47,545 bases of DNA from Pseudomonadota bacterium (GCA_040386295.1 JAZKFR010000038.1:4933-52477); one strand, 5' to 3'; positions 4,749 through 40,738 are shown, counted from the stretch's first letter. Notes: a model not told the origin generated them from the sequence alone. Made by a program: numbers and translations.

Positions 4749-4824
<76 letters not shown>

Positions 4825-5064: not shown

Positions 5065-5096
5065 CCTGCCAATCAAGGCAACCTTAGGAGATGGTG

Positions 5097-5609
5097 ATGC
5101 ATTGGTATCTCGCTTATACCAAACCCCGGCAAGAGAAATGCGCGCTGCAAAACTTAGAACGACAGGGTTATCAGTGTTATCTCCCAATGCTTGCTGCAGA
5201 GAAACTGCGTCAAGGCACGTTGATGATGCAAGATGAAGCGCTATTTCCACGCTATTTGTTCATCCGTCTGGGGCGCGACAATTCAGCAAAGAGCTGGGCA
5301 CCCATTCGTTCAACAAAAGGGGTCACCGGGCTAGTGAGTTTTGGGGCAGAGCCAGCGAAAGTCGACGATCGTTTAATTAAGCTGCTGAGAAAACAAGAAG
5401 CCGCAGGGCAAGCCGAACCGGAACGTCTGTTCAAACACGGCGAGCGGGTACGCTTAACCGAAGCACCTTTTGCCGGAATTGGGGGGGCTGGAATTGAAGC
5501 GGTCTATCAAATGGCCGATGGCGAGCGCCGAGCTATGGTGCTCATCGAACTCCTGAGCAAACCTGTTGCTGTACGGGTATCGCCAAGCAGCTTGCAAAAA
5601 ACAAGCTGA
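5097..5609 (+). CDS. rfaH: RfaH-type (NusG paralog) operon-specific transcription antiterminator
   Basis: The N-terminus MHWYLAYTKPRQEKCALQNLERQGYQCYLPM...EALFPRYLFIRL tracks E. coli RfaH (MQSWYLLYCKRGQ...EPLFPNYLFVEF, recalled from memory). A C-terminal KOW segment reads GERVRLTEAPFAG...ADGERRAMVLIELL. I prefer the start at ATG 5097 (7 nt after AGGAG) over the tracked 5091. Confidence 0.85.
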   Translation: MHWYLAYTKPRQEKCALQNLERQGYQCYLPMLAAEKLRQGTLMMQDEALFPRYLFIRLGRDNSAKSWAPIRSTKGVTGLVSFGAEPAKVDDRLIKLLRKQEAAGQAEPERLFKHGERVRLTEAPFAGIGGAGIEAVYQMADGERRAMVLIELLSKPVAVRVSPSSLQKTS

Positions 5610-5991: not shown

Positions 5992-6003
5992 GGCGGTAGC
6001 CTG
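5992..6003 (+). promoter_or_regulatory. ops (operon polarity suppressor) element, the RfaH recruitment site
   Basis: GGCGGTAGCCTG lies on the coding strand. It matches the GGCGGTAG core plus T11 of the E. coli ops consensus GGCGGTAGnnTG. It is 228 nt upstream of the first gene of the glycan operon. Confidence 0.75.
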
Positions 6004-6230: not shown

Positions 6231-8006
6231 TTGGAACACTCTAGCCAGTCGATCACAAGTTTGCTACGCCGCCTCTGGAGTCATGTTGGCAAGCGCCGTC
6301 GCGTCCAATTGTTTGCGCTGTTTATGCTCATAGCCTGCACCTCTTTTGTTGAGGTCGTCAGCATCGGCGCGGTTTTGCCCTTTTTGGGCTTGCTGACCGC
6401 GCCAGAACGCGTCTTTGCACACCCATTTGCGCAGTACATTATCCAGCCACTTGGGATAGAAAGCGCGCAAGCGCTATTACTGCCGATGACGGTTATTTTT
6501 GCTGCCATCGCCTTCCTGTCTGGTTTTATGCGCTTACTGCTGCTATGGGTACAGACACGCCTGAGTCACGCGATTGGTTCTGATTTCAGTTTGGGCATGT
6601 ATAGAAGGACGCTTTACCAGGCTTACTCCGTGCACCTTGCGCGCAACAGCAGCGAGGTGATTGCCGGAATATCTAATAAAGCTAAGGCAATTGTCGGCAG
6701 CACGCTACTGCCGTTGATGGTCATTATCAGTTCAGTCATGTTGCTGGGGACTATCTTTGTTGCCTTGCTTAGCCTAGAGCCGATGATCGCGCTCATCGCC
6801 TTTAGCGGCTTCGGGATTATCTACGCAGTGGTGATTCTGGCGACCAAAAGACGAATGCTGCGCTATAGCCAAGCAATCAGCCAAGGCCATAACGATGTAG
6901 TCAGGGTCTTGCAAGAGGGCTTAGGCGGCATCAGAGATGTCTTGATCGACGGCACACAGGACACTTATTGCAACATCTACCAGGCCGTCGATGCGCCCAT
7001 GCGTCAGGCAATGGCAAACGTCCAGATCATCAGCATCAGCCCACGGTACGGGGTAGAGGCTTTGGGCATGGTCTTGATTTCCGCCTTGGCTTACCTGCTC
7101 ACGCTCAGCAGCAGCGGAATCGCCAGCGCTATTCCGGTACTTGGCGCCTTGGCCATGGGCGCACAACGCATGCTGCCCATGCTGCAACAGGCTTACTCAA
7201 GCTGGGCGTCGATCCGTAGCGGACAAATATCGCTAAGCGACGCGCTGGATTTGATGGATCAGCCACTCCCCCCTGATGCAGATAAACCTTCTCCCGCTGC
7301 GCTGCGCTTCAACAACTCTATTGTGTTGCGCAATGTCTCGTTTACATACACTCCAGAAAAACCAGAAGTCCTTCGTTGTTTCGACATTTCGATCGCCAAA
7401 GGGTGTCGGCTTGGCATCGTCGGCAGTACTGGCAGCGGCAAAAGCACCTTTCTCGATATCTTCATGGGCTTATTGTCGCCAACACAGGGTGAGATGCTGG
7501 TAGATGGGCAAAAGATAAGCGCAGAGAACCGGCGGGCGTGGCAGGCGCACATTGCGCATGTCCCGCAAAGCATCTTTCTTTCAGACGCTAGCATTGCCGA
7601 AAACATCGCATTAGGCGTACCGAAAGCGGAAATCGATTGGACGCGGCTGCGTGCGGCTGCAGAAAAAGCCCAGATCGCCGATGTGATTGCAGCACTTGAA
7701 GATGGATACGACACCCGTGTCGGTGAACGCGGTGTTCGCTTATCGGGAGGGCAGCGGCAAAGAATTGGCATCGCCAGGGCGCTCTACAAAAATGCGGATG
7801 TCATTGTTTTTGACGAAGCAACCAGCGCCTTAGACAGCGATACCGAGCGCAAAGTGATGCAGGCAATCAACACGCTAGGCAATAACCTGACCCTCATCAT
7901 CGTTGCGCATCGCGTCAGTACGCTCAAAAATTGTGACCAAATCATTGAGATTGGTGCGGGCAGAGTTGAAAGAACGGGCACTTACGATGAAATCATCTGC
8001 CCCTGA
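6231..8006 (+). CDS. Fused TMD-NBD ABC exporter (MsbA/PglK-type half transporter)
   Basis: About 300 aa with 5-6 hydrophobic helices precede Walker A GSTGSGKST, signature LSGGQRQR and Walker B VIVFDEATSALD. The TTG start at 6231 is provisional. Confidence 0.85.
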   Translation: MEHSSQSITSLLRRLWSHVGKRRRVQLFALFMLIACTSFVEVVSIGAVLPFLGLLTAPERVFAHPFAQYIIQPLGIESAQALLLPMTVIFAAIAFLSGFMRLLLLWVQTRLSHAIGSDFSLGMYRRTLYQAYSVHLARNSSEVIAGISNKAKAIVGSTLLPLMVIISSVMLLGTIFVALLSLEPMIALIAFSGFGIIYAVVILATKRRMLRYSQAISQGHNDVVRVLQEGLGGIRDVLIDGTQDTYCNIYQAVDAPMRQAMANVQIISISPRYGVEALGMVLISALAYLLTLSSSGIASAIPVLGALAMGAQRMLPMLQQAYSSWASIRSGQISLSDALDLMDQPLPPDADKPSPAALRFNNSIVLRNVSFTYTPEKPEVLRCFDISIAKGCRLGIVGSTGSGKSTFLDIFMGLLSPTQGEMLVDGQKISAENRRAWQAHIAHVPQSIFLSDASIAENIALGVPKAEIDWTRLRAAAEKAQIADVIAALEDGYDTRVGERGVRLSGGQRQRIGIARALYKNADVIVFDEATSALDSDTERKVMQAINTLGNNLTLIIVAHRVSTLKNCDQIIEIGAGRVERTGTYDEIICP

Positions 8007-8027: not shown

Positions 8028-9899
8028 ATGAGCCTCATCAAACAACGCGTTCTCTGGGCTAACTACCCAGGAGAAGTGCTGGCAAAAGAATTGCTTCCCT
8101 GCTTCCCGAGCTTAGCGTCTACAACTTATCGCCTCGATCAATCCGAGGTCAGATTTCTGATGACCGCGCTATCCCCGCTTTACTCGCAAATGCTAGAGAC
8201 ACTGGCTAATCCGGTGGCCGCAGCCAGCGGAGTGGAGCCAGAGCAATGCAAAATAATTCTGCGCGAATCGGTCGTACTGATCACCTACACCCTGTTTGAC
8301 AGGATGTTTAGGCTGGCCAAAATTTTGGCGGATGAAAATTTAGAGGGCCTCGTCGTAGCGACGCAGCAAGGAATTTATCCCACGAGCAACGGCCAGCTAA
8401 GCGCTTTGACCGATGGATCTCCTGAGTTTAATCAATACCTGATTGTTCAGCTTGCCGCCTCAATCTGGGCAATCCCTGAAGTTCGTTTAGCCTCCCCCAT
8501 GCTGAATGACGTAAGAAACACTAAAAAAACAAATAATCTAAATTTTGCCCAGCCCGGACTGTGGCAGCGCGTACGCCGTAAATGGAGCAAGATCATCTCA
8601 AGGCAATTCGGCACCTTCCCCACTTTAAGGCTAGCCAATATTGACGATCCTTTGCTCGACGGTGGTCTTTATGCAGCAGGCCAGCTCTTATGGCTGGAAG
8701 ACCTGAGCCATGAGAACGACACGCAGAGAGACCACGCGCTTCGGAACACTCTGGCAGAGCAGCTCAAAGCAGGTTTTTTTAGTGTTTTGACTGATCAGAT
8801 TCTTTCTCGGCTTGGCAAGCTCGCGCCATTCGTGCCGGCACGAGTCGCTGCCATATATTCCAAGCTATTGTCAGAATTGATTCCGCCAGAACGGCTAGAG
8901 GGAATAGCCGCTTACCCAAAATATGAAGCAAAGCTGGCCTCACTTTCTGCGCCTGCACTCTTCTTTTGTGCGATGCCGGGCGGGCAAGATATCCACTGGA
9001 TTGCCGCAGCAAAAAAATTACGTATCCCCGTCGTTGGCGTGCAACATGGTGCCCACTATGGGTTTTCCAGCCAGCCCTGTTTCCTAGATACCGAGTTCGC
9101 TTATTGCGATAAATTTGTTACTTGGGGATGGTCGGATTTTCCGCAACATCCTTTGTCGTCAAAGATCAGGGCAATAGCCTTACCTAGCCCCTGGCTAAGC
9201 GAACGAGCAAGTCTGTGGAAGCAAATCCAGACTTTGCGTCAGGGTCAAGGACAGAGACAGCGCCGCCCGCATGATGTCTTGCTGATGTCTGATCGGATAC
9301 AAGTCTTCCCGCCCTCAGTGAGCACCTTGCGCATGTCGAGGGTAGATTTCCTACCTGAAATAAATCGCACACTCCAAGCGCTGGTCAGCGAGTTAGCGCA
9401 GCGCAAGATTCGTCTTCTGAATAAGCCTTTTAACTACACATCGAGAGATATACAGCGCCAAGTGCTTGATGGCTTGTTGCACGAATTTCCAGAGCACTAC
9501 GCTGAATACGAAAAATTAGACAAAGGCTTGACGCAAAATTTGCTTGAGCGTGCTTGGCTGGTTCTGTGGGATGAGCCTGGCACAGGGTTTTTTGAGTGCT
9601 TAGTCGGCGGCATTCCGTGCATGGTTTGCTGGGAAAGAATGACTTCCTGCGAAGAAGATTACGCTAGACCCTATTTCCAGAAACTTGAAGATGTTGGGCT
9701 GCTGCATTCCTCGCCCACGAGCCTCGCCAAAGCAATCCAGTGCTTCCTAAATGAGCCAGAAGCTTGGCTGAATGACCGTGAGAGAAACACGGTCATTCGC
9801 CAGGTGACGGATCGTTTCGCGCAGACAGACAAAGCTTGGAACATCGCTTGGAAAGCAGCGCTAAAGACGCTTGCAAGCGACGGTTTGATTGGCCCTTAA
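8028..9899 (+). CDS. Orphan 623-aa protein, possible GT-B-like transferase
   Basis: A long ORF starting 21 nt after the ABC gene. The C-terminal half has a Rossmann-like beta-alpha pattern (IPVVGVQHGAHYG, VLLMSD, LVLWDEPGTGFFECLVGGIPCMV). I can name no diagnostic motif. Confidence 0.55.
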   Translation: MSLIKQRVLWANYPGEVLAKELLPCFPSLASTTYRLDQSEVRFLMTALSPLYSQMLETLANPVAAASGVEPEQCKIILRESVVLITYTLFDRMFRLAKILADENLEGLVVATQQGIYPTSNGQLSALTDGSPEFNQYLIVQLAASIWAIPEVRLASPMLNDVRNTKKTNNLNFAQPGLWQRVRRKWSKIISRQFGTFPTLRLANIDDPLLDGGLYAAGQLLWLEDLSHENDTQRDHALRNTLAEQLKAGFFSVLTDQILSRLGKLAPFVPARVAAIYSKLLSELIPPERLEGIAAYPKYEAKLASLSAPALFFCAMPGGQDIHWIAAAKKLRIPVVGVQHGAHYGFSSQPCFLDTEFAYCDKFVTWGWSDFPQHPLSSKIRAIALPSPWLSERASLWKQIQTLRQGQGQRQRRPHDVLLMSDRIQVFPPSVSTLRMSRVDFLPEINRTLQALVSELAQRKIRLLNKPFNYTSRDIQRQVLDGLLHEFPEHYAEYEKLDKGLTQNLLERAWLVLWDEPGTGFFECLVGGIPCMVCWERMTSCEEDYARPYFQKLEDVGLLHSSPTSLAKAIQCFLNEPEAWLNDRERNTVIRQVTDRFAQTDKAWNIAWKAALKTLASDGLIGP

Positions 9900-16362: not shown

Positions 16363-16993
16363 AGTCGCCCTGATTGACTACGGCATGGGAAATCTACTCA
16401 GTGTCCAGCGCGGCTTGGAGCGCGTGGGTGCCGAGGTTCACGTCACTTCCGAGCCCGAGCACATTCTGTCTGCCGATAGAGTGGTTCTGCCCGGTGTCGG
16501 CGCTTTCCCTGACGCTATGGACGAACTTGAGCGGCGTGGACTGGTGCCAGTGATGCGCACTCTGGCGAAGCAAGGAACGCCCTTGCTCGGGATCTGTCTC
16601 GGCATGCAAATTCTCTTCGACGTAGGACTTGAGTTTGGCGAAACAGCGGGACTTGGCCTGATTCCCGGCCGCGTTCTGCCGATGCCTAAAGTATCCGCCC
16701 AGGGTGATCTGCTGAAAATTCCGCACATCGGCTGGAACTCGCTACATCCGGCAGGCGACAGCGATTGGCAGACGGGCGTACTCGCCGAACTTGAATCGGG
16801 CGAAGCGGTTTATTTTGTGCACTCTTTCATGGCGCAGCCGCAAGAAGCGCGGTTTAGCATTGCCCACTGTTTTTACGGCGGGATTCCGATTGCTGCGGTC
16901 GTCGGCAGAAATAAAGTGCTTGGCTGCCAATTTCATCCAGAGAAAAGTGGTGAAGTGGGTCTGCGCGTTTTACGCGGATTTCTGTCGCTTTGA
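16349..16993 (+). CDS. HisH-like class I glutamine amidotransferase paralog (WbuY-type)
   Basis: VALIDYGMGNL, LPGVGAF, GICLGMQ (nucleophile Cys) and FHPEKS. Confidence 0.8.
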   Translation: MCAAKVALIDYGMGNLLSVQRGLERVGAEVHVTSEPEHILSADRVVLPGVGAFPDAMDELERRGLVPVMRTLAKQGTPLLGICLGMQILFDVGLEFGETAGLGLIPGRVLPMPKVSAQGDLLKIPHIGWNSLHPAGDSDWQTGVLAELESGEAVYFVHSFMAQPQEARFSIAHCFYGGIPIAAVVGRNKVLGCQFHPEKSGEVGLRVLRGFLSL

Positions 16994-17024
16994 GCAACCA
17001 CGATTCGATTGGAGCAGGCTGACG

Positions 17025-18191
17025 GTGTCACCTTACTTAAAAAAATTGGCCGCTTTCTGCTCGTATTTTTGGCACGCTAAAAAGACTTGGTCTTGGCCGA
17101 AGAAAAGCGACATTCTTATTTTTGATGCTTGCGGAGAAGCGCTGCTGCGCGAATATCTAAGCGACTGGTCGATTGAGGTTTTGCCTGTTCGTGGCGAACG
17201 GATCAATGTGCCACTCATGCTCGCCAGTTTGTTTGTTTCCGGGCGCAGGTCAGAAGCTTATTTTGATCTCTACGTGCGCAAGGTTGCGCCCAAATTGATC
17301 ATCACGTTTATCGACAACACTCCCGCCTTTTATCGACTCACAGTGCGGCATCCTGGGGTGAAAACGATGTTCATACAGAACGGCTGGCGTAGTCGTTATG
17401 GCGACGTTTTCGAGTTATTGACAGAGCCCGCGCCAAGCCAGAAAAACGCACTGGCGGTTGACTACATGATGTGTTTCGGCTCTGCGATAGGCGCCCATTT
17501 CCAGCGTTACATCGCAGGCGAAGTTATGGCGATCGGCGCGCTACGCAACAACCGTCAGCCACAGCTCGCCAGCAAAGCGGCCGGGACAATCGCTTTTATT
17601 TCGCAATGGAGTCGACATGGCGTGCAGCTAGCGGGCAAAACTTATTCTCAGGATGCGTTTATGGGTACAGCAGATCGCTGCATTCTCGCTTTCCTGTCCA
17701 AGTACGCAGCCGAGCACAAAAAAAAGCTGTATATCATTCCGCGCACGCACGTCGGCAGCGTCGATCGCCGCGATGAGACAAGCTACTATTCGGCCTTACT
17801 CGGCAAAGCCTGTTCTTTCCTAGAATACGACACGCCAGGATCGTCCTATCAAGCGATCGACGTTGCCGAAGTCGTTGTCGGGGTTGATTCAACCCTGGTC
17901 TATGAAACCATCGCGCGTGGGAACAAGGCAGCGGTGTTCGCCATCAGAAGTGCATTGATGGGCGTCGAGGGCTTTGAATATGGTTGGCCGGCGCCGCTCG
18001 CGGCAGAGGGCGCGTTCTGGACTAACTCACCATCGCCTGAGCGATTTAGAGCGGTTTTAGATTATTTATTCTCGACCAGCGAAGCGCAGTGGCGCGCTGA
18101 ACTTAAGCGTGTTTCGTTTGAGCAACTCATGGTTTTTGATCCTGATAACACAATCCTAAAAACAACCCTAACTCAGGTGTTACGCAGCTGA
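17025..18191 (+). CDS. Orphan 388-aa protein, possible GT-B-like (NulO?) transferase
   Basis: The tracked ORF (from 16791) overlaps hisH-like by 200 nt and has no early ATG. The in-frame GTG at 17025, 10 nt after GGAG, is the likely start. The layout looks Rossmann-like (LIITFIDN, IAFISQW, LYIIPRTH, VVVGVDSTLVYE). Confidence 0.55.
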   Translation: MSPYLKKLAAFCSYFWHAKKTWSWPKKSDILIFDACGEALLREYLSDWSIEVLPVRGERINVPLMLASLFVSGRRSEAYFDLYVRKVAPKLIITFIDNTPAFYRLTVRHPGVKTMFIQNGWRSRYGDVFELLTEPAPSQKNALAVDYMMCFGSAIGAHFQRYIAGEVMAIGALRNNRQPQLASKAAGTIAFISQWSRHGVQLAGKTYSQDAFMGTADRCILAFLSKYAAEHKKKLYIIPRTHVGSVDRRDETSYYSALLGKACSFLEYDTPGSSYQAIDVAEVVVGVDSTLVYETIARGNKAAVFAIRSALMGVEGFEYGWPAPLAAEGAFWTNSPSPERFRAVLDYLFSTSEAQWRAELKRVSFEQLMVFDPDNTILKTTLTQVLRS

Positions 18192-31575: not shown

Positions 31576-32352
31576 ATGAAAGTAGTCATTCTCTGTGGCG
31601 GTTACGGCACGCGCATACGTGACGTGAGCGACGATATTCCCAAGCCCATGATTCCGATTGGCCGTTTTCCTATTCTCTGGCACATCATGAAGTACTACGC
31701 GAGCTACGGTCATCGCGACTTTGTGCTTTGCCTCGGATACAAAAGCCATGTAATCAAGGATTTCTTCCTGAACTACGAAGCGCATACCAAGGATTTCACG
31801 ATCGATCTTGGGCGCAAAGATAAGCTCACCTTCCATACCGAGCATGAGGAATCTGACTGGACAGTGACGCTCGCCGAGACCGGGCTCGGCGCCATGACGG
31901 GGGCACGCATCAAGCGTATCCAAAAATATGTAGGTGACGAGGATTTCATGCTGACCTACGGCGATGGCGTCGGCAACGTCGATCTTGACGCCTTGCTCAA
32001 GACCCACCAGCAACACGGTCGGGCGCTCACCGTAACCGGCGTTCGTCCACCCGGACGTTTTGGCGAGCTCAGGCACAGCGAGGGCGTAATCACTGAATTC
32101 AACGAGAAACCGCAAGCCACCGGAGGCCGCATTTCGGGCGGCTATTTTGTCGCCACGCGCAAATTATTCGATTATTTGAACGATGACGAAACACTGGTTT
32201 TCGAGCAGCAACCGATGCGTGAGCTCGTTACCGAGCGGCAATTGGGCGTCTTTGAACACGATGGCTTCTGGCAGCCGATGGATACCAGCCGCGAATACCA
32301 GTTGCTTAATTCGCTTTACGATCACGGAGGTGCGCCTTGGGTACGTTGGTAA
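31576..32352 (+). CDS. rfbF: Glucose-1-phosphate cytidylyltransferase
   Basis: MKVVILCGGYGTRIRD...IPKPMIPIG...LCLGYK; the length and motifs match RfbF/DdhA. Confidence 0.85.
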   Translation: MKVVILCGGYGTRIRDVSDDIPKPMIPIGRFPILWHIMKYYASYGHRDFVLCLGYKSHVIKDFFLNYEAHTKDFTIDLGRKDKLTFHTEHEESDWTVTLAETGLGAMTGARIKRIQKYVGDEDFMLTYGDGVGNVDLDALLKTHQQHGRALTVTGVRPPGRFGELRHSEGVITEFNEKPQATGGRISGGYFVATRKLFDYLNDDETLVFEQQPMRELVTERQLGVFEHDGFWQPMDTSREYQLLNSLYDHGGAPWVRW

Positions 32353-33422
32353 AAGATGCTTACCTAGGCGTTTTTCGCGGCAAACGCGTTCTGGTAACGG
32401 GGCATACTGGATTCAAAGGCTCCTGGCTGACCCTATTACTCACCTCTTTAGGTGCTGAAGTGATGGGTTATGCGCTGCCGGCTCAAGATGCAGAAAGCCA
32501 CTTCGCCTGCCTGGGTCTCGAAGACTCAATTCGCCACATCACGGGGGATATTCGTGATGGTGCACGCGTGCTGGCCGAAGTCTCGGCTTTTCAGCCAGAA
32601 ATCGTTTTTCATTTGGCGGCACAGGCGCTAGTGCGACCGTCCTACTTTGACCCCAAAACAACTTTTGACGTCAATCTTGGCGGCGGGGTCAATCTTCTAG
32701 AAGCGGTGCGGCAATGCGCTAGCGTGCGCGCACTGGTCTTTGTCACCTCTGATAAGTGTTACGAAAATCTAGAGTGGATATGGGGCTACCGCGAATCGGA
32801 CACGCTCGGCGGACACGATCCTTACAGCGCCTCCAAAGGCGCCGTCGAACTGGTCTTCTCGTCGTATTTGCGCTCGTTCTTCGCGCAGCGAGCAGACTTC
32901 GGCGCCGCCAGCGTGCGCGCGGGTAACGTCATCGGGGGCGGGGATTGGGCGGCAGATCGTATTGTCCCCGACTGCATTCGCGCCCTACGCGCCGGGCAGC
33001 CGATCATTATTCGCAGCCCTGAGGCGACACGCCCTTGGCAGCACGTACTCGAACCGCTATCGGGCTACCTCAAGTTGGCGGCGAGTTTATACGAGCACGG
33101 ACACGCTTACGCTGGCGCTTGGAATTTTGGCCCGCATGTGGGCGATGTGCGCACGGTGCTCGACGTAGCCAAGACCCTTGCGGCGCAATTTGAGCAGGCG
33201 CAAGTGCTTGTCGATGCGCCACAACACAAAGTACACGAAGCGCAGTTGCTTCAACTCAACAGCGACAAGGCGCGCCAGCGCTTAAACTGGGACACGCGCT
33301 GGGATTTTGCACAAACCTTGGCGGCGACGGGTGGCTGGTACAAAGCAGTGCTGATCGAGGGCAAACCAGCCACGCTCGTTTCGCGCGAACAAATTTCTCA
33401 ATACTACGGAGGCCAACTGTGA
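32337..33422 (+). CDS. rfbG: CDP-glucose 4,6-dehydratase
   Basis: VLVTGHTGFKGSWL, YSASK and a 361-aa length, directly downstream of rfbF. The TTG start is provisional. Confidence 0.85.
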   Translation: MGTLVKDAYLGVFRGKRVLVTGHTGFKGSWLTLLLTSLGAEVMGYALPAQDAESHFACLGLEDSIRHITGDIRDGARVLAEVSAFQPEIVFHLAAQALVRPSYFDPKTTFDVNLGGGVNLLEAVRQCASVRALVFVTSDKCYENLEWIWGYRESDTLGGHDPYSASKGAVELVFSSYLRSFFAQRADFGAASVRAGNVIGGGDWAADRIVPDCIRALRAGQPIIIRSPEATRPWQHVLEPLSGYLKLAASLYEHGHAYAGAWNFGPHVGDVRTVLDVAKTLAAQFEQAQVLVDAPQHKVHEAQLLQLNSDKARQRLNWDTRWDFAQTLAATGGWYKAVLIEGKPATLVSREQISQYYGGQL

Positions 33423-33868
33423 TTGATGGCGTCATCGTGACCCCCTTAAAACAAATCGCCGACGAGCGGGGAAAAGTCATGCACATGCTGCGCAACGATG
33501 CGCCGCATTTTGCTGGCTTCGGCGAAATCTATTTCTCTACCGTCCATCCCGGCGCAATCAAGGGCTGGCACGTGCATCAGCGGATGATCCTGAATTACGC
33601 AGTACCGCAGGGCATGATCAAATTCGTTCTCTACGACGACCGCCCTGGCAGTAAAACGCAAGGCGTGGTGCAGGAGCTCTTTCTCGGCGTCGACAACTAC
33701 TGTTTGGTCACCGTGCCGCCCAGGGTTTGGAACGGCTTTAAGGGGATCGGTACGGAGACCGCACTGGTGGCCAATTGCGCGAGTATTGCGCACGACCCGT
33801 ATGAGATCGAACGCAAAGATCCGTTCGATCCTGCGATTCCCTACGACTGGGCGATCAAACACCGATGA
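33419..33868 (+). CDS. Short RmlC-like cupin NDP-4-keto-6-deoxyhexose epimerase
   Basis: GEIYFSTVHPGAIKGWHVHQRM...; a 149-aa cupin. The GTGA start overlaps the rfbG stop. Confidence 0.7.
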   Translation: MIDGVIVTPLKQIADERGKVMHMLRNDAPHFAGFGEIYFSTVHPGAIKGWHVHQRMILNYAVPQGMIKFVLYDDRPGSKTQGVVQELFLGVDNYCLVTVPPRVWNGFKGIGTETALVANCASIAHDPYEIERKDPFDPAIPYDWAIKHR

Positions 33869-33875
33869 AACACCA

Positions 33876-34862
33876 ATGAAACAGCGCGTCCTAATTACCG
33901 GCGGCCTTGGCTACGTCGGCGGTCGCATCGCGCAAGCGCTGCTTACAGCGGGCCATTCAGTACGTTGCGGCACGCGCCGCGCAAACTTGTCGGCACCGGC
34001 GTGGCTGCCTGAGATGGCACTGGTCAGGCTCGACTGGGCGTCGCCCGATTCGCTCGCTGAGGCCTGTCGCGGCATCGAATGCGTTATTCATCTGGCCGCC
34101 ATGAACGAAATCGAATCAGCGCAAGATCCGCTAGGTGCTTTGCAGATGAATGGCTTAGCCAGCTTGCGCCTACTCGAAGCCGCCAAACACGCCGCTGTTC
34201 GACGCTTTATTTATTTTTCAACGGCGCATGTCTATGGCGCACCGTTGCAAGGTGAGATTAGCGAAACCAGCCTGCCGCGACCGATCCATCCTTACGCCAT
34301 CACGCACAAAGTGGCCGAAGATTTTGTGTCGGCTGCACACGATCAGAAGCAAATCGAAGGGCTGGTCATTCGCCTATCGAATGGCTTTGGCGCACCACTG
34401 ACGGCACAAATCGATCGCTGGACGCTGTTAGTCAACGATCTATGCCGCCAAGCCGTGACTCGGGGTGAACTCAGTTTGAACAGCGCAGGCACTCAGTTGC
34501 GCGACTTCATTACGCTAGCCGACGTTGCGCGCGCGGTGAATCATCTGTTGCAACTCGATGTAACCCAGCTCGGCGATGGTTTGTTCAATTTAGGCAGCGG
34601 CGAATCCGTGTCTATCTTCGCAATGGCGCAACGCATTGCTGGACGTTGGCACGCGTTGAGCGGGCAAACTGCGCCCATCATCAGACCAGAACCGAAGCCA
34701 GCAGCAAACTCGAACAGCAATAGTCTCACCGTAGCGGCGCTCAACTACCGTTGCGCTAAGCTCGCTGCGACTGGCTTTGCGCTTACTTCGCAAGTCGACC
34801 GCGAGATCGACGACACCCTGCGTTTGTGCACACAAGCGTTTGGCCAGCAAAGAAAAATATGA
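33876..34862 (+). CDS. NAD(P)-dependent epimerase/reductase (extended SDR), likely a 4-ketoreductase
   Basis: VLITGGLGYVGGRI and YAITK. The start is at ATG 33876, because the tracked 33786 start overlaps the cupin gene. Confidence 0.7.
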   Translation: MKQRVLITGGLGYVGGRIAQALLTAGHSVRCGTRRANLSAPAWLPEMALVRLDWASPDSLAEACRGIECVIHLAAMNEIESAQDPLGALQMNGLASLRLLEAAKHAAVRRFIYFSTAHVYGAPLQGEISETSLPRPIHPYAITHKVAEDFVSAAHDQKQIEGLVIRLSNGFGAPLTAQIDRWTLLVNDLCRQAVTRGELSLNSAGTQLRDFITLADVARAVNHLLQLDVTQLGDGLFNLGSGESVSIFAMAQRIAGRWHALSGQTAPIIRPEPKPAANSNSNSLTVAALNYRCAKLAATGFALTSQVDREIDDTLRLCTQAFGQQRKI

Positions 34863-35746
34863 CCAATCCACGCGTCTCGATTGTCATCCCGACCTATAAC
34901 CATGCGCACTTCTTACGCACGGCGCTAGATTCAATCCTGGCGCAGACCGTGCAGGATTGGGAAGCCATCGTCGTCAATAACTTTTCTACTGACGATACGA
35001 TCGAGGTAGTTCAGTCCTACGACGACGCGCGCATCAAACTGGTTAATTTTGCTAACCACGGAATCATCTCTGCTGCGCGCAATCATGGCCTATCTTTGAC
35101 GCAAGCCCCGCTCGTCGCGTTTCTCGACTCGGACGACGCTTGGTATCCAAACAAGCTCGCGCTGTGTTTGGACAAACTGGCGCAAGGATATGACCTGGTG
35201 TGCCATGGCGAACTTTGGTTAGGGCCTGAGCAAAGGCGACGTACAGTGCACTACGGCCCTGCCGCCAGGGCGAGCTACGCAAGCTTGCTCCTGCAAGGTA
35301 ATTGCCTGTCGACCTCAGCTGTGGTCGTGCGCAGGGAATGCCTGGAGCAGGTTGGCGCGTTCAGCGTTCTGCCAGAATTTGTCACTGCCGAAGATTACGA
35401 ACTGTGGCTTAAATTAGCGCGCGCAGGCGTGCGCATCGCCTTCCTTGAAGACATCCTGGGTGAATACTTGATTCATGAGGCGAACCAAAGCCGCGCCGCA
35501 TTGCGCAATATGCAGGCGGTCATGGCCGTCTTCAAAGAGCATAGCGCGGCGCTGCCTGAGCAGGTTCCGGCGCGGCGTTTGCGTCGGCGCGAAGCCATTA
35601 TTTTTTATAGCGGCGCACGCGGTTTACAAGACAGCGGACAGTACCGGCAGGCATGGCCGTATTTTTTCAAAGCAGTGCTGCATTACCCCTGGGTTCTGCG
35701 CTTTTATGCCGCGATGCTGCTTAATGCCCTCGGGCGACGACCATGA
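34859..35746 (+). CDS. GT2-family glycosyltransferase
   Basis: VSIVIPTYNHAHFL...FLDSDD (GT-A DxD). The ATGA start overlaps the upstream stop. Confidence 0.8.
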   Translation: MTNPRVSIVIPTYNHAHFLRTALDSILAQTVQDWEAIVVNNFSTDDTIEVVQSYDDARIKLVNFANHGIISAARNHGLSLTQAPLVAFLDSDDAWYPNKLALCLDKLAQGYDLVCHGELWLGPEQRRRTVHYGPAARASYASLLLQGNCLSTSAVVVRRECLEQVGAFSVLPEFVTAEDYELWLKLARAGVRIAFLEDILGEYLIHEANQSRAALRNMQAVMAVFKEHSAALPEQVPARRLRRREAIIFYSGARGLQDSGQYRQAWPYFFKAVLHYPWVLRFYAAMLLNALGRRP

Positions 35747-35758
35747 AGGCTTAAGCGG

Positions 35759-36538
35759 ATGAGACTGCGTCGTTTTATTACGCGATCGATTGCGCAAGCG
35801 ATCGCTGCTGCCAATTGCTTTCGCTTGCCGCCAGAAGGTTTACGCGTGCTCATGTATCACGCGATCGGGACGCCCGCGCTGGGCGATCAATTAGGTTTAT
35901 TTTCCTTATCGCGCGAACGCTTTCAGCAGCATATGCGTTGGCTTGCAGCGCAAGCGCGCTTTAAGGTCGTCGCGCTGACGGAAAGCGTACTCGCGGCGCA
36001 GGGGCGCCGCGTTGCGATTAGCTTTGACGACGGCTATCTAGACAACCTGGAAGTCGCAGCGCCCATTCTGAGCGAGCTAGGCTTACCGTTTACGGTGTTC
36101 GTCACTTCAGAATTTGTCCGTACCGGCAAGCCAGGCTTTCTCTCTCCGTCGGCTCTGCGTAGCTTGGCCGCTTTACCCGGCGCGCAAATCGGCGCACACG
36201 GGGCAAATCACCTAGACCTAGCGCAATGCGACGAGCCGACTTTGCACGCCGAATTGCGCTCCAGCCGAGACTACCTAGAAGATGTGCTGGGCAGCCCGGT
36301 GCGCATGCTGGCGTATCCGTATGGCGCAGCCAATCTCCGTGTCAGAGCAGCTGCGCTGGCGGCGGGTTATCGACTCGGAGCCTGTAGTCAGGCGGGCATT
36401 AACCGCGCTCAGCGTGATCCTCTGTTATTGCGCCGCACTGAAGTGCTCGCTTGCGATAACGCACGCGTATTTGCGCAAAAGCTACATGGCGATTGGGATT
36501 GGTATCGTTGGCGCAGGCAGGATCCGGCATGTTTTTAA
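35759..36538 (+). CDS. Polysaccharide deacetylase (NodB homology, CE4)
   Basis: ISFDDGYLDN (Asp-Asp metal/catalytic motif), GAHGANH and LAYPYG. Confidence 0.8.
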   Translation: MRLRRFITRSIAQAIAAANCFRLPPEGLRVLMYHAIGTPALGDQLGLFSLSRERFQQHMRWLAAQARFKVVALTESVLAAQGRRVAISFDDGYLDNLEVAAPILSELGLPFTVFVTSEFVRTGKPGFLSPSALRSLAALPGAQIGAHGANHLDLAQCDEPTLHAELRSSRDYLEDVLGSPVRMLAYPYGAANLRVRAAALAAGYRLGACSQAGINRAQRDPLLLRRTEVLACDNARVFAQKLHGDWDWYRWRRQDPACF

Positions 36539-37530
36539 ACTCGCCCCTTATTTCTGCCAGCGCTTTTCCCGTGACGCTGGTCATCCCGATTCTGAATGAG
36601 GCCGAGTCCTTGCCTGAATTGCTGCAGGCGATCAAGGCACAAAAGCATCGTCCCGACGAGATGATTTTTTCTGATGCCGGATCATCCGATGGCAGCGTCG
36701 CCTTAATCGAGGCTTGGTGGCAACGCGAAGCCTGGGTCGGAGCGGCGTGTCGGGTGCTTGTTCTACCCGGCGCGATGCCGGGCGCCGGGCGCAACGCAGG
36801 GGTACGCCTTGCACGCAACGGCTGGATTGCTTTTCTCGACGGCGGCATCACGCCGCACCACGATTGGTTGCAACAGCTGTGTCGTCATGCCCGAGAAAAC
36901 AAAGCGCTGGCCGTCTTCGGTCTATGCCATTTTTCAGCACAGAGCTCGTTTGCCAAAACAGTCTGCGCTTTGTCCTATGGCTACGGCGCGCTACACCCGG
37001 TGATCCCAGCTTCTTTGTTCGCGCGCCCGCTCTTTGAAGCCATCGGCTTCTTTCCTGAACACTTACGTGCTGGCGAAGATATTGTTTGGGTCAATGCCTT
37101 AGTCGCGCGCTATGGTTCGCGCGAAGTGTGCAGCGCGGCGCGCGTTGAGTACACGCACTTCCCGCAGGGCTGGCGCCAGGTGGTACGCAAGTGGCGCTTG
37201 ACCGAAGCGCATTGCGTATTCGCCGGGGTCAGAACAACACAACAAGCGCTCTATTTACTCGGCTTGCCCACCCTGTATCTACTGCTAGGTTTCGGCGGCA
37301 GCGTAGGCTTAGCCACCTTCACCGCTTATCTTGCCTTGCGCGGGGTGATCGACCCGATACGACGTAGTGCGGATCGCCCTTGGTGGCGCGGACGTCCCAG
37401 CGCAGCGCTGAGGGCACCGCTGCTAGTCCTTGCCCTAGACCTCAGCAAATGGTTCGGGATCATGCAAGGTATCGCGCTCAAATGCTGGCGCAAGCTTGCG
37501 CTTAGCGAGGAACAAAATGCTCGCCGTTGA
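36529..37530 (+). CDS. GT2-family glycosyltransferase with C-terminal membrane helices
   Basis: TLVIPILNEAESL, SDAGSSDGS and FLDGG, followed by hydrophobic ALYLLGLPTLYLLLGFGGSVGLATFTAYLAL. Confidence 0.75.
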   Translation: MFLNSPLISASAFPVTLVIPILNEAESLPELLQAIKAQKHRPDEMIFSDAGSSDGSVALIEAWWQREAWVGAACRVLVLPGAMPGAGRNAGVRLARNGWIAFLDGGITPHHDWLQQLCRHARENKALAVFGLCHFSAQSSFAKTVCALSYGYGALHPVIPASLFARPLFEAIGFFPEHLRAGEDIVWVNALVARYGSREVCSAARVEYTHFPQGWRQVVRKWRLTEAHCVFAGVRTTQQALYLLGLPTLYLLLGFGGSVGLATFTAYLALRGVIDPIRRSADRPWWRGRPSAALRAPLLVLALDLSKWFGIMQGIALKCWRKLALSEEQNARR

Positions 37531-38527
37531 ACCTCGGGAAGTACTGTTTCCCAGCGACACCCAGCTGCGTTATTACAGTTTGGCGCGCTATGCCCTGATC
37601 GATGCGCTACACCTGGCCGGGATTGGCCACGGCAGTCGCGTGCTGTTGCCCGGCTACCTATGCCGTGATCTGCTGGCACCGCTGCATTTATTAGGTGCTC
37701 TCGCCTGTTGGTACGAAGTCGCGCCAGATTTATCACCGGCACAATCACCCGAGCTGTGGCCACAAGCGGACGCTGTGTTAGCCATCAATTACTTCGGTTT
37801 TGCGCAAGATCTAAGGCCATTCCAAAGCTATGCGCAGCGTACTGGCGCAGTGCTTATCGAAGACAACGCACACGGTTATCTGAGTCGAGATCAAGACGGT
37901 TGCTGGCTCGGCTGTCGTGCCACTTTGGGACTGTTTAGCCTGCGTAAAACCTTGCGTATTCCTGACGGTGCTGTGCTGTGGTTTAGCGCACTGCCCAGTA
38001 CACGCACAATCCCGCAACAACTTCCGTTCTCTGGACACGGGCTTAATCCAGCGCAACTGAGCAAAGCCCGTTTGCGCCGCCTACCGCTGATCGGCGAAAC
38101 GCTCTATCGGAGCTCAATAGCGCTCGCTCGATGGCTACGTAAGCAACGCACAGGCAGTGCAACGCCGACGACAGACCCAAACTCTGAATATTTAGTACCT
38201 GGCTCGCCACAACCCTGGTCTGGATTACGCGCCGCACTAGCTGCTTGCGTCGCATCAAGAGAAATTGAACGACGTCGAACAGCCTATCTACGCTGTGCAG
38301 AAATCGGCGTGCGCGTCGGCGCGCGGCCTATCTTTAGTCACTTACCCGATTATTGCGCGCCCTACGCCTTCGCCTTTCGCGCCGACCAAACAGCGCTCGA
38401 CGCGATGCGACGCTATGCTGCCGAGCAGGGCTTCGATCTAGTCAGCTGGCCAGATCTACCTGAAGAAATCGTCAGCCAAGCGCCAACGCATTATTGCAAC
38501 GTATTTTTGATCAATTTCTTATGGTGA
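37517..38527 (+). CDS. DegT-like PLP-fold protein, N-terminally short and atypical
   Basis: ARYALIDALHLAGIGHGSRVLLPGY, LIEDNAHGY and LFSLRKTLRIPDGAVL parallel the DegT/DnrJ core, including a candidate PLP lysine. The usual first ~40 aa are absent. Confidence 0.5.
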   Translation: MLAVEPREVLFPSDTQLRYYSLARYALIDALHLAGIGHGSRVLLPGYLCRDLLAPLHLLGALACWYEVAPDLSPAQSPELWPQADAVLAINYFGFAQDLRPFQSYAQRTGAVLIEDNAHGYLSRDQDGCWLGCRATLGLFSLRKTLRIPDGAVLWFSALPSTRTIPQQLPFSGHGLNPAQLSKARLRRLPLIGETLYRSSIALARWLRKQRTGSATPTTDPNSEYLVPGSPQPWSGLRAALAACVASREIERRRTAYLRCAEIGVRVGARPIFSHLPDYCAPYAFAFRADQTALDAMRRYAAEQGFDLVSWPDLPEEIVSQAPTHYCNVFLINFLW

Positions 38528-39501
38528 TTTGGACACAATATCGGGGCTCAGCGTCTGCCTGGGACGAACACGTAGCGGCCTTGTCCGGGGGTTTCTACCA
38601 GAGCTATGGCTGGGCTGAGGTACGCCGGGTCGCTGGCTGGCAAGCCTTACGTATGCTGGCAAAACAAGATGGGCAGCTTGTTTGCGCCGCCAGCATCTTG
38701 GTCAAACGCAAGCTTGGCGTCGCGGTGTGTTGGATTCCCGGCGGTCCGCTAGGCTCAGCTCAGCTGCTCGACGATCACTTTCGCTCGGCCTTGAGCCAAG
38801 CCCTCGGAACGCCTGCCGTCTATTGTCGCCTGAGCCTGCTACGGCCTGCGCAGACAGGGGAAGAGACCTTTCTGCGCGCTTCAAGCTGGACGCGACCCGC
38901 TGTCGCCATGAGTAGCGGACTGACGATGTGTTACTCGCTCGCAGGCGATGAAAGCGAACGTTTAAAGCGGACGAGTGGTAATTGGCGGCACAACTTAAAG
39001 CGCTCTGGACGCTACGGACTGCGCATTGAACATTGGGCGCACCCCGATCTGGCCGCCATTTCTGCTCTGTACCGAGAAATGGAAGCGCTCAAAGGCTTAC
39101 CCGTACAACATAGCGAGACCGAGCTGGCTGCGATGTTTGCACAGTGCGGCAAACAGATCGTCATTTATCGTTGTCTCGATAGCGCAGGACGTTTGTTGGC
39201 GCTACGGGCCGCTGGTTTGTGTGCTACGACGGCGATGGATTTGCTCGCCGCAGCTGGCGGCGAAGCACGTAAGGTGTATGCCTCGCACGCCACACTTTGG
39301 GGCTTACTCGATCATTGCAGCCAGCTCGGATTAGTTGACTACGATTTGAGCGGCGTTGACCCCGAAGGAAACAAAGGCGTATTTGATTTCAAACACGGCA
39401 CAGGCGCTGTATTAACGCAATGCTTGGGTGAGTGGGAGTGGGCTTCGCTACCGGGTTTATGCTCAGCCGTTAATTACTTGCTCAAACGCAAAGGCGTTTG
39501 A
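38521..39501 (+). CDS. FemAB-like / GNAT-fold aminoacyl or acyl transferase
   Basis: FYQSYGWAEV, NWRHNLKRS and FDFKHGTGA resemble the FemABX / Acetyltransf_6 layout. It is the last gene of the operon. Confidence 0.6.
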   Translation: MVIWTQYRGSASAWDEHVAALSGGFYQSYGWAEVRRVAGWQALRMLAKQDGQLVCAASILVKRKLGVAVCWIPGGPLGSAQLLDDHFRSALSQALGTPAVYCRLSLLRPAQTGEETFLRASSWTRPAVAMSSGLTMCYSLAGDESERLKRTSGNWRHNLKRSGRYGLRIEHWAHPDLAAISALYREMEALKGLPVQHSETELAAMFAQCGKQIVIYRCLDSAGRLLALRAAGLCATTAMDLLAAAGGEARKVYASHATLWGLLDHCSQLGLVDYDLSGVDPEGNKGVFDFKHGTGAVLTQCLGEWEWASLPGLCSAVNYLLKRKGV

Positions 39502-39517
39502 GCAAGGTACTGCGACA

Positions 39518-40738
39518 TTACGGCGCTTTGGCGCTGGGCGCGGGCGCTTGTCGCCGCAAAGGTGGCGGACTCATTGACGCGGCCAAGAATAGCCAGACTA
39601 GGGCAAGCAGCGAACTCAGCACAAAAATAGCGCCAGTGCCCACGTTCTGACTCAACCATCCGCCCAAACTACCGCCTAGAAACAAACCGCAGGCTTGCAT
39701 GGTGTTGTACACGCCCAGGGCAAAGCCGCGTGCGTGCGCCGGAGCGGTACGCGAAATCAACGACGGTAGGCTGGCTTCAAGCACATTAAAAGCCAAAAAG
39801 AAGCAGACCATTAGCCCGCACAGCGCAGGAAAGCTCTCGCGCCCAAAGAGAAAGCCAATTTGCGTTAGCAACAACAGCGTAATCGCGGCCAGAAATACTT
39901 GTTTTACCTTGCCGTGGCGTTCAGAAAAAAGAATCACCGGAACCATCAATACAAAAGAAAGCAGAATCGCGGGCAAGTAGATTTTCCAGTGCTCAGCCAA
40001 AGGCAAATCACCGCTAAAACGTAAAGCCTGAGGGACCACGACAAACATCGCCATCTGCATTAAGTGCAAACAAAAAATACCAAAATTAAGGCGTAGCAAC
40101 TGTGGGTTGCGCAAGACCTCGGCTTTACGCATAACAGTTTGCGGCTTGATCAACGGCGGCGCAGGCGGCACCAAATAGAGCACCAGCAAAATAGCGCCCA
40201 AGGCTAAAACTCCCGTCAACGCAAACAATCCTGACAGGCCAATCAAGGCGTAGAGCAAAGGTGCGGCAACAAGCGAACCAGCAAAGACTAAGCCAATCGA
40301 CGAGCCGATCATCGCCATCACTTTGGTGCGATGTTGCTCACGCGTCAGATCAGCCGCAAGCGCACTGACCGCCGCCGAGATAGCGCCCGCGCCCTGCACT
40401 ATGCGCCCGGCCAAAATGCCGTATAAATCGGTAGAAAAAGCAGCGAGTAGGCTGCCTAAGGCAAACAGAATCAAACCAAAAACGATCACCGGTTTGCGCC
40501 CAAACCGATCCGACGCCATGCCAAACGGAATTTGAAACAGCGCTTGAGTCAGCCCGTAAGCACCGAGCGCAAGCCCCACCAAGGTGAGATTGTCCCCGCC
40601 CGGCAGTGCGCGCGCGGCAACCGAAAAAACCGGCAGTATCAAAAACAGCCCGAGCATGCGCAGGCCAAAAATAGCGGCCAAACTAACGCCAGCGCGGCGT
40701 TCGGCGGAGGTCATTCGGTCTTTAGTTGGGGAATACAT
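39518..40738 (-). CDS. MFS transporter, YajR-like
   Basis: MTSAERRAGVSLAAIFGLRMLGLFLILPV...GLTQALFQIPFGMASDRFGRKP...DLTREQHRTK tracks E. coli YajR as I recall it; about 12 TM helices. Confidence 0.8.
   Translation of the reverse strand: MYSPTKDRMTSAERRAGVSLAAIFGLRMLGLFLILPVFSVAARALPGGDNLTLVGLALGAYGLTQALFQIPFGMASDRFGRKPVIVFGLILFALGSLLAAFSTDLYGILAGRIVQGAGAISAAVSALAADLTREQHRTKVMAMIGSSIGLVFAGSLVAAPLLYALIGLSGLFALTGVLALGAILLVLYLVPPAPPLIKPQTVMRKAEVLRNPQLLRLNFGIFCLHLMQMAMFVVVPQALRFSGDLPLAEHWKIYLPAILLSFVLMVPVILFSERHGKVKQVFLAAITLLLLTQIGFLFGRESFPALCGLMVCFFLAFNVLEASLPSLISRTAPAHARGFALGVYNTMQACGLFLGGSLGGWLSQNVGTGAIFVLSSLLALVWLFLAASMSPPPLRRQAPAPSAKAP

Follow-up and report, generated by a model that had tools for sequence, protein, structure and literature searches.

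A possible glycan-tailoring cassette at the end of an O-antigen-type operon pairs a Fem-like transferase with a divergent DegT-fold protein

Introduction

Four genes lie at positions 35759-39501 of a 47,545-nucleotide stretch of DNA from a Pseudomonadota bacterium (GCA_040386295.1): a CE4-family polysaccharide deacetylase, a GT2 glycosyltransferase, a short DegT-like protein of the pyridoxal phosphate (PLP) type and a FemAB-like (hereafter Fem-like) transferase. The whole stretch, referred to below as the window, is contig C38:4933-52477 of an assembly of 2.39 Mb in 188 contigs. Which modification of a surface glycan could such a combination of enzymes install, and what part would the DegT-like protein play in it? 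An earlier annotation of the same DNA (hereafter the initial annotation) proposed that the deacetylase exposes an amine on an N-acetyl sugar and that the Fem-like enzyme then acylates this amine with an amino acid. The idea is sound, but it is not new, as it follows the published logic of the Wbp/Vim and BD-12 systems discussed below.

We consider it an even chance that these four genes form the tailoring end of an operon for lipopolysaccharide (LPS) O-antigen or lipooligosaccharide (LOS) that is under RfaH control, and that they join an amino acid by an amide bond to an amino sugar. Function, from the tRNA donor and the amino acid to the acceptor sugar and the order of the steps, we infer from sequence, predicted structure and synteny, based on the folds, catalytic residues, operon coupling, cross-locus linkage and gene fusions described here. 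The context of the operon, with rfaH and an ops element, a PglK-like flippase and O-antigen families, supports this assignment.

The acceptor glycan would be undecaprenyl-linked (or nucleotide-linked) and on the cytoplasmic side of the membrane. The FemX-fold enzyme would form the amide bond with an amino acid taken from aminoacyl-tRNA, the CE4 enzyme would remove N-acetyl, the part taken by VimE ahead of VimA in Wbp/Vim, and the short DegT-fold protein would be an active PLP enzyme on the same sugar and the usual partner of the Fem-like enzyme. In the scheme that we prefer, by analogy to the diamino sugar of Wbp/Vim, all three enzymes would tailor one diamino sugar. The co-conserved CDP-glucose 4,6-dehydratase, or else the WbpM/PglF-like dehydratase with which most related loci end, would supply a keto-sugar for the DegT-like protein to aminate, the CE4 enzyme would free a second amine, the Fem-like enzyme would aminoacylate one of the two amines, and the adjacent GT2 enzymes would place the sugar.

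Results and discussion

Linkage of the cassette genes across related loci

The cassette consists of four open reading frames (ORFs) on the plus strand, at the positions given in the initial annotation, and consecutive ORFs overlap by 10, 14 and 7 nt. We compared 89 loci, retrieved by two exact-protein look-ups, a genome scan and a metagenome scan, in which the Fem-like genes are 33-75% identical to that of the window; the locus counts include near-duplicate contigs and are not fully independent. The DegT-like and Fem-like proteins each have hundreds of homologs (33-75% identity), and thus are not chance ORFs. In a class-wide search the Fem-like gene was present in 1 of 401 genomes, namely the window's own, and a single-protein scan of genome contigs yielded only 5 loci. 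Among reference genomes the module is rare; most known examples come from metagenomes.

The DegT-like protein, a side issue in the initial annotation, is the tightest partner of the Fem-like gene, closer than the CE4 gene. Where at least 1.1 kb of upstream sequence is available, the DegT-like gene ends no more than 200 nt from the start of the Fem-like gene in 60 of 64 loci. Exceptions include L058, in which a diverged DegT-like gene lies one gene further upstream, and L040, in which the DegT-like gene is about 2.2 kb upstream, with space for an inserted gene. A CE4 gene is found within a few kb of the Fem-like gene in 38 of 42 loci. The CE4-GT2 unit and the DegT-like/Fem-like unit exchange order among locus types (L002 versus L004), and many loci have another GT2 in place of the cassette GT2, or none.

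In most loci (L003, L025 and L072 differ) CDP-sugar genes and a soluble GT2 (GT2a) precede the module. On the downstream side, many loci carry a GT4, an initiating transferase that is PglC- or WecA-like and a dehydratase that is WbpM/PglF-like, and a canonical DegT gene is absent there. The minimal arrangement, in L072, comprises a PglC-like gene, a reductase-like short-chain dehydrogenase/reductase (SDR), a GT4, the DegT-like and Fem-like genes and a Wzy_C gene. In the literature searched we found no description of the tight DegT-like/Fem-like pairing or of the distribution of this module, which extends to LPS operons in several phyla.

Gene fusions (Table 1) reinforce the coupling among the module genes. 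The CE4-DegT-like fusion has a hydrophobic N-terminal segment and is followed by a Fem-like gene and then, in L096, by a DAO-family oxidoreductase dependent on flavin adenine dinucleotide (FAD). Other DegT-like domains are fused to a GT2, or to a zinc ribbon and an S-adenosylmethionine (SAM) methyltransferase, and a GT2 is fused to a methyltransferase in L058. The homolog and locus searches returned no single-chain fusion of DegT-like and Fem-like proteins. The tandem Fem-Fem gene of L074-76 directly follows a DegT-like gene in loci without CE4; such tandems suggest stepwise addition of amino acids, giving a dipeptide rather than a single residue. An apparent fusion of GT2a and Fem-like genes in L010 was rejected as a long-open-frame artifact, the two genes being in different frames.

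Two further observations concern the neighbors of these genes. In L003 a methyltransferase gene is immediately 5' of the DegT-like gene, and the DAO-type enzyme 3' of the fusion and Fem-like genes is reminiscent of BD-12, in which an FAD enzyme modifies the glycyl group.

Comparison with known systems

The initial annotation took the chemistry of deacetylase and FemAB pairs to be uncharacterized, yet it has been published for two systems. In the Wbp/Vim pathway of Porphyromonas gingivalis and of Tannerella forsythia, the CE4 protein VimE is proposed to remove the C2 acetyl group and VimA, which matches TIGR03019, to add serine or glycine (PMC7468200, Veith et al. 2020). The products are 2-N-seryl or 2-N-glycyl sugars, and replacing P. 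gingivalis vimA with that of T. forsythia changes the sugar-linked residue from serine to glycine (PMC7468200). The likeness to the cassette is that a CE4 enzyme and a Fem-type transferase operate in an LPS-type glycan pathway that also has a DegT-family aminotransferase (WbpE), giving an amino sugar with N-linked serine or glycine in which the transferase sets the amino acid.

The cassette differs from Wbp/Vim in several respects. The WbpA/B/D/E gene set for a 2,3-diacetamido uronic acid does not accompany the module: WbpA, WbpB, WbpD and WbpS are absent, as are a UDP-GlcNAc dehydrogenase and a WbpB-type oxidase; the sole Gfo/Idh/MocA gene sits inside the Leg cluster. The DegT-like protein of the cassette belongs to a truncated, divergent family that is coupled directly to the Fem-like gene, and the cassette is in an RfaH-controlled O-antigen/LOS operon of a genome without an exosortase.

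In BD-12 biosynthesis a deacetylase acts first and the Fem-like protein Orf11 then glycylates the amino sugar (PMC10156733, PMC12945691). Orf11, Sbb17 and Sba18 acylate, with Gly-tRNA, the C2 amine exposed by the N-acetyl-gulosamine deacetylase (that of streptothricin biosynthesis is cited in the reference list of the BD-12 literature), and their structures resemble the cassette Fem-like protein at TM-scores of about 0.69-0.78. BD-12, however, is a secondary metabolite of actinomycetes; the acceptor in its pathway is a small molecule, and there is no DegT-like partner. In the Caulobacter holdfast system a cytoplasmic CE4 enzyme (HfsH) and a Fem-like GNAT protein (HfsK) both tailor a surface polysaccharide (PMC5362036), but hfsK is unlinked to hfsH, its product binds c-di-GMP and there is no DegT partner.

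The cassette would work like Wbp/Vim and BD-12 and is a member of neither: its Fem-like protein misses TIGR03019, it is accompanied by no Wbp genes and the genome carries no exosortase. The link to PEP-CTERM-associated families that the initial annotation drew is not upheld: neither TIGR03006 nor TIGR03019 is matched, and the window genome (95.8% complete) has no match to the exosortase family PF09721, and a PEP-CTERM/exosortase deacetylase and FemAB pair was therefore rejected. Removal of an acetyl group followed by addition of an amino acid is published chemistry; the near-universal PLP partner is undescribed in the literature searched.

The DegT-like protein

The DegT-like protein matches PF01041 only marginally (1.3e-4; 21.8 bits, the cut-off being 19.8), and the match covers positions 55-169 of a profile of 360. 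Its ORF is open from 37496, and the homolog length of 336 aa favors the start at 37517, as in the initial annotation. The AlphaFold2 model has a mean predicted local distance difference test score (pLDDT) of 85, and the top Foldseek matches in the PDB are all DegT-family aminotransferases (4qgr, ArnB, TlmJ, WbpE, Fic25 and WecE, at TM-scores of about 0.6).

An alignment of 30 sequences has two invariant stretches, E115-D116-N117-x-H119-G120 and S141-x-R143-K144-T145, within the motifs E-D-N-A-H-G (D116, H119) and F-S-L-R-K-T-L-R-I-P-D-G (S141, K144). In the family profile, 'FSL..RKTLRIPDG' is aligned to 'FSFHPRKTLTTGEGG' in 9bgp, an aminotransferase, and to the region of ArnB K188, so that K144 corresponds to the catalytic lysine, and D116 to the aspartate of the EDAAH motif, of ArnB and 9bgp. 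The alignment thus indicates that the Schiff-base lysine, the pyridine-nitrogen-binding aspartate and the His/Gln position are all retained. The conservation of the PLP lysine, a point raised by the initial annotation, argues that the protein is probably active, as K144 is conserved together with D116 and H119. A dead pseudo-enzyme was rejected on the invariance of these three residues and of about 70 other positions in the same sequences.

The initial annotation rightly called the protein atypical and short of an N-terminal segment. It lacks about 25-30 residues at the canonical N-terminus, it has S21-L-A-R24 in place of the usual S-(G/A)-T phosphate loop, and two residues are deleted between the serine and the Schiff-base lysine. 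Only its fold and core residues place the cassette protein in the DegT family. Its own family comprises 297 clusters (50% identity) at E<=1e-30, for which the protein collections give only generic names and we found no paper.

Two roles are plausible for the DegT-like protein. By analogy to WbpE in Wbp/Vim, it may make the sugar amine; this role is favored by the loci that have the DegT-like/Fem-like pair and no CE4 gene, in which the acceptor amine need not come from a deacetylase. It may instead act on the amino acid once this has been attached, at its free alpha-amine, a role favored by the fusions to CE4 and to methyltransferases, by the neighboring oxidase and by the loss of N-terminal features.

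The second role leads to a purely Vim-type route, in which the CE4 enzyme alone makes the acceptor amine, the Fem-like enzyme aminoacylates it, and the DegT-like protein then epimerizes, transaminates (to a 2-oxoacyl group) or beta-eliminates at the alpha-amine of the new residue. CE4 and Fem-type pairs do recur in Vim, BD-12, holdfast and PEP-CTERM systems without need of a DegT enzyme, and the CE4-DegT-like fusion suits sequential action on one residue. The methyltransferase-DegT fusions and the DAO-type oxidase 3' of the Fem-like gene in L096 resemble amine tailoring, and, besides having lost the usual N-terminal and phosphate-loop features, the protein has Fic25 and TlmJ, DegT-family enzymes on non-sugar amines, among its Foldseek neighbors. 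The pairs without CE4 are difficult to accommodate in such a route, however, and the position of the DegT-like gene upstream of the Fem-like gene is the usual aminotransferase to N-acyltransferase order. Nor is any DegT-family enzyme known to us that acts on an N-aminoacyl sugar. We regard this route as unlikely, with a real minority share of the probability.

The Fem-like transferase

The Fem-like protein matches PF02388 well above threshold (6e-13, 48.8 bits against a cut-off of 24). Its ORF is open from 38494 and the homolog length of 326 aa favors the start at 38521, again as initially annotated. In the AlphaFold2 model (pLDDT 94.6) two GNAT-like domains are arranged as in FemX, and the best Foldseek match is Weissella viridescens FemX (1ne9, TM-score 0.82, root-mean-square deviation 3.0). 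It is followed by S. aureus FemX (6snr), Sbb17/Sba18 and FemA (1lrz and 9wqx were also matched), and then by aminoacyl-phosphatidylglycerol synthases. The 11 best structural matches are all aminoacyl-tRNA-dependent enzymes, including Sbb17/Sba18, whose structures were solved with the amino sugar streptothrisamine.

The residues agree with the fold. F290-K291 is invariant in 32 sequences and aligns with F304-K305 of FemX, in which K305 is described as the sole reactive residue of the active site (PMC12945691). R35, aligned with K36, keeps a basic residue at that position, and the basic helix N-W-R-H-N-L-K-R is invariant. The FemAB-like assignment of the initial annotation is thereby upheld, and by fold and catalytic residues the cassette belongs to the FemABX and CE4 superfamilies. 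These features of sequence and model point to aminoacyl-tRNA-dependent amide formation. In contrast to the FemX enzymes of W. viridescens and S. aureus (and FemA), the cassette protein has no coiled-coil insert, is encoded in an LPS operon and not in a cell-wall operon, and presumably acts on a sugar amine and not on a peptide lysine. The position of the UDP-binding R211 of FemX is Q196/H197.

The features just described also bear on a more ordinary explanation, that the Fem-like protein is an acyl-CoA-dependent N-acyltransferase (acetyl or short acyl) that forms, with the DegT-like protein, an 'aminate then N-acylate' pair for a dideoxy-amino sugar, the CE4 and GT2 enzymes modifying a different residue. 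Aminotransferase and N-acyltransferase genes are known to adjoin in most amino-sugar pathways (PglE/PglD, FdtB/FdtC, WbpE/WbpD), the GNAT domain PF13480 is matched at threshold, NCBI/JGI names of the homologs include 'GNAT family N-acetyltransferase', and HfsK and VimA were long annotated as acetyltransferases. However, the C-terminal, catalytic GNAT half has no conserved acyl-CoA pyrophosphate-binding motif (Q/RxxGxG/A), and tandem GNATs that use CoA reach TM-scores of only about 0.55, versus about 0.8 for the Fem enzymes. The invariance of the FemX Phe-Lys dyad and basic helix also speaks against it, and Fem-Fem tandems make little sense for acetylation. Together these make an acyl-CoA donor rather improbable in our view.

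Precedent exists for coupling PLP chemistry to a Fem-type enzyme. In DhpH a FemX-like domain is fused to a PLP domain, which makes the acceptor amine. There the substrate is a phosphonate amino acid, the PLP domain is not known to be of DegT type, and the two parts form one protein, whereas in the cassette they are separate genes. DhpH-C, of dehydrophos biosynthesis, is FemX-like and uses Leu-tRNA (PMC12945691).

A more speculative proposal, to which we give a small probability, is that the DegT-like protein is a dedicated PLP partner that edits the amino acid and is not a sugar aminotransferase. It would act on aminoacyl-tRNA (as SepSecS, SepCysS and SelA do) or on the alpha-amine after transfer. 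If so, LPS would carry a D-, 2-oxo- or other non-proteinogenic N-acyl group in place of the ordinary L-aminoacyl group that translation supplies, and the PLP and Fem pair would be a general two-enzyme machine.

A second Acetyltransf_6/Fem-like match in the window genome is located outside the locus, in a 427-aa open frame (C44:835-1215, minus strand).

The CE4 deacetylase and the GT2 glycosyltransferase

The solved structure closest to the CE4 protein is 6dq3 (6.8e-13). H34 (of the 'YH' motif), D90, D91, H147, H151, Y186-P187 and R226 are kept in at least 93% of 53 homologs from related loci, with D91/H147/H151 as the metal triad and D90 and H34 as the catalytic aspartate and histidine. From the PgaB residues His55, Asp114, Asp115, His184 and His189, we take this set to be the catalytic acid, catalytic base and metal triad of the PgaB/IcaB type. 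The deacetylase call of the initial annotation is thus well founded, with a full PgaB/PplD-type catalytic set. Neither a signal peptide nor a transmembrane segment was detected, and the N-termini are short, charged and not hydrophobic; the enzyme should therefore be cytoplasmic and share a compartment with the tRNA-using enzyme. The CE4-DegT-like fusion likewise argues for a shared compartment.

The ORF of the GT2 opens at a TTG at 36493, and its likely start is the ATG at 36529, overlapping the CE4 stop. D61, D116 and E195-D196 are kept in 29 homologs. The GT2 assignment holds, and the description of the protein as membrane-bound is weakly borne out, by marginal hydrophobic windows at residues 253-282 (KD-19 about 1.6) and a hydrophobic C-terminal tail.

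The four gene types map one-to-one on ArnB, the ArnA formyltransferase, ArnC and ArnD, the DegT-like protein has ArnB among its best matches by sequence and by structure, and the GT2 has a hydrophobic C-terminal region, but an Arn-like route, in which the DegT-like protein aminates, the Fem-like protein transiently N-acylates, the GT2 moves the sugar to undecaprenyl phosphate and the CE4 enzyme deacylates it before periplasmic transfer, is very improbable and was ruled out as the leading explanation: the GT2 is not ArnC-like (PRK10714 matches over 48 residues only, E 9e-5, and the best PDB match is GalT1) and is replaced by a different GT2 or absent in many loci, no ArnT-like GT-C or ArnE/F was found in the window, and spending aminoacyl-tRNA on a transient protecting group is implausible.

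Weighing the aminoacylation scheme

Several observations weigh against aminoacylation of a diamino sugar by the cassette. The Fem-like protein is outside the VimA family, matching no NCBIfam family at E<=0.01 and hence not TIGR03019; R211 and D108 of FemX are not conserved in it; and HfsK, a related Fem-like protein, is still called a putative acetyltransferase. For the DegT-like protein, the atypical N-terminus, the phosphate loop and the deletion before the lysine make ordinary NDP-sugar aminotransferase activity uncertain. Gene content also varies: L010 and L087 have a Fem-like gene without a DegT-like gene, L072, L073, L074/75 and L089 have the DegT-like/Fem-like pair without CE4, and L072, L025 and L003 have no nearby dehydratase. 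The WbpM/PglF-like gene may be merely a conserved locus boundary. No single fixed three-enzyme scheme fits all loci.

Amide-linked amino acids occur on amino sugars of bacterial O-antigens and capsules; to our knowledge, few of the enzymes that install them have been identified. If the module does install them with aminoacyl-tRNA, it would be a gene marker for amino-acid decorations in Proteobacteria, Nitrospira and freshwater methylotrophs, Vim-type chemistry would reach beyond Bacteroidota, and a function would be defined for a DegT-like family of about 300 clusters. Free or aminoacylated amines alter surface charge, so that effects on phage or predator recognition and on the binding of antimicrobial peptides are expected. 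Vim-type chemistry would not surprise a specialist; the PLP partner is directly testable.

Operon and genome context

The features of the locus and the fusion proteins of related loci are listed in Table 1.

Table 1 Positions of the features in the window and of fusion proteins in related loci (L numbers)
Feature	Position	Strand	Match or support
tRNA-Phe(GAA)	4749-4824		
rfaH	5091-5609	+	TIGR01955 RfaH, 3.7e-48
ops-like GGCGGTAG element	5992-5999	+	sequence match; precedes the operon whose last genes are the cassette
Co-conserved upstream block: Glc-1-P cytidylyltransferase, CDP-Glc 4,6-dehydratase, RmlC-like cupin, SDR, soluble GT2 (GT2a)	31576..35746	+	families in the text
CE4 (NodB-fold) de-N-acetylase, PgaB/IcaB/PplD type, predicted cytoplasmic	35759..36538	+	PF01522 Polysacc_deac_1, 2.5e-23
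GT2 glycosyltransferase, weakly hydrophobic C-terminal region	36529..37530	+	PF00535 Glycos_transf_2, 5e-19
Short divergent DegT-fold PLP-type protein, 336 aa	37517..38527	+	PF01041 DegT_DnrJ_EryC1, partial match
FemX-fold tandem-GNAT transferase, 326 aa, candidate aminoacyl-tRNA-dependent N-aminoacyltransferase	38521..39501	+	PF02388 FemAB and Acetyltransf_6
Convergent major facilitator superfamily (MFS) gene	39518-40738	-	
CE4-DegT-like fusion P0309, 666 aa, 3 contigs	L096:7995-10001; L097:3802-5802		uninterrupted ORF
Trm112-like zinc ribbon, SAM methyltransferase and DegT-like fusion (P0275, P0316)			
GT2-DegT-like fusion (P0402, P0418)			
GT2 and methyltransferase fusion	L058:11786-13657		
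Fem-Fem tandem protein, 703-aa ORF	L074:2745-4856; L075; L076		F-K motif in both FemX-like modules

The ORFs from 6231 to 39501 are all co-directional, and this 33-kb same-strand run is probably a single RfaH-dependent transcript. The ops-like element is just 5' of the first gene, at 6231, which encodes a PglK/MsbA-like ABC flippase. This is accompanied by Leptospira-type O-antigen families (LIC12162, LA_1612) and followed by a WbuX amidotransferase with HisH/F-like genes and two nonulosonic-acid gene sets. Methyltransferases and a GT4 come next, then the CDP-glucose branch, GT2a and the four cassette genes. In the window genome the cassette is terminal, as the initial annotation held, the convergent MFS gene following directly on its 3' side.

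Within the block upstream of the cassette, whose gene order is kept in most related loci, the glucose-1-phosphate cytidylyltransferase matches TIGR02623 (1.6e-93) and the CDP-glucose 4,6-dehydratase TIGR02622 (2.5e-139). The cupin matches 3ejk best (2e-36), followed by weak RmlC matches; an FdtA-type 3,4-ketoisomerase is thus unsupported for this gene.

Genes that are 3' of the cassette in other genomes (GT4, WecA-like, WbpM/PglF-like, Wzy_C ligase and a second MsbA-like ABC transporter) occur in the window genome on other contigs (loci L092-L095): a Wzy_C O-antigen-ligase-type gene on C90, a GT4 on C94 and a WecA-like and WbpM/PglF-like pair on C177/C178. The LPS locus of this genome is either split or broken by the assembly; the MsbA-like transporter, too, is among the short contigs C178, C177, C94 and C90.

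The tRNA-Phe(GAA) gene adjoins the rfaH/LPS locus, and variable surface-glycan loci typically insert at hotspots of this kind. Of the two Leptospira-type families (window positions 8028-9899 and 16791-18191), LIC12162 is matched in its C-terminal part only and under the cut-off, and LA_1612 above the cut-off. That rfb-type families are common to the window and to spirochaetes (Leptospira) was unexpected.

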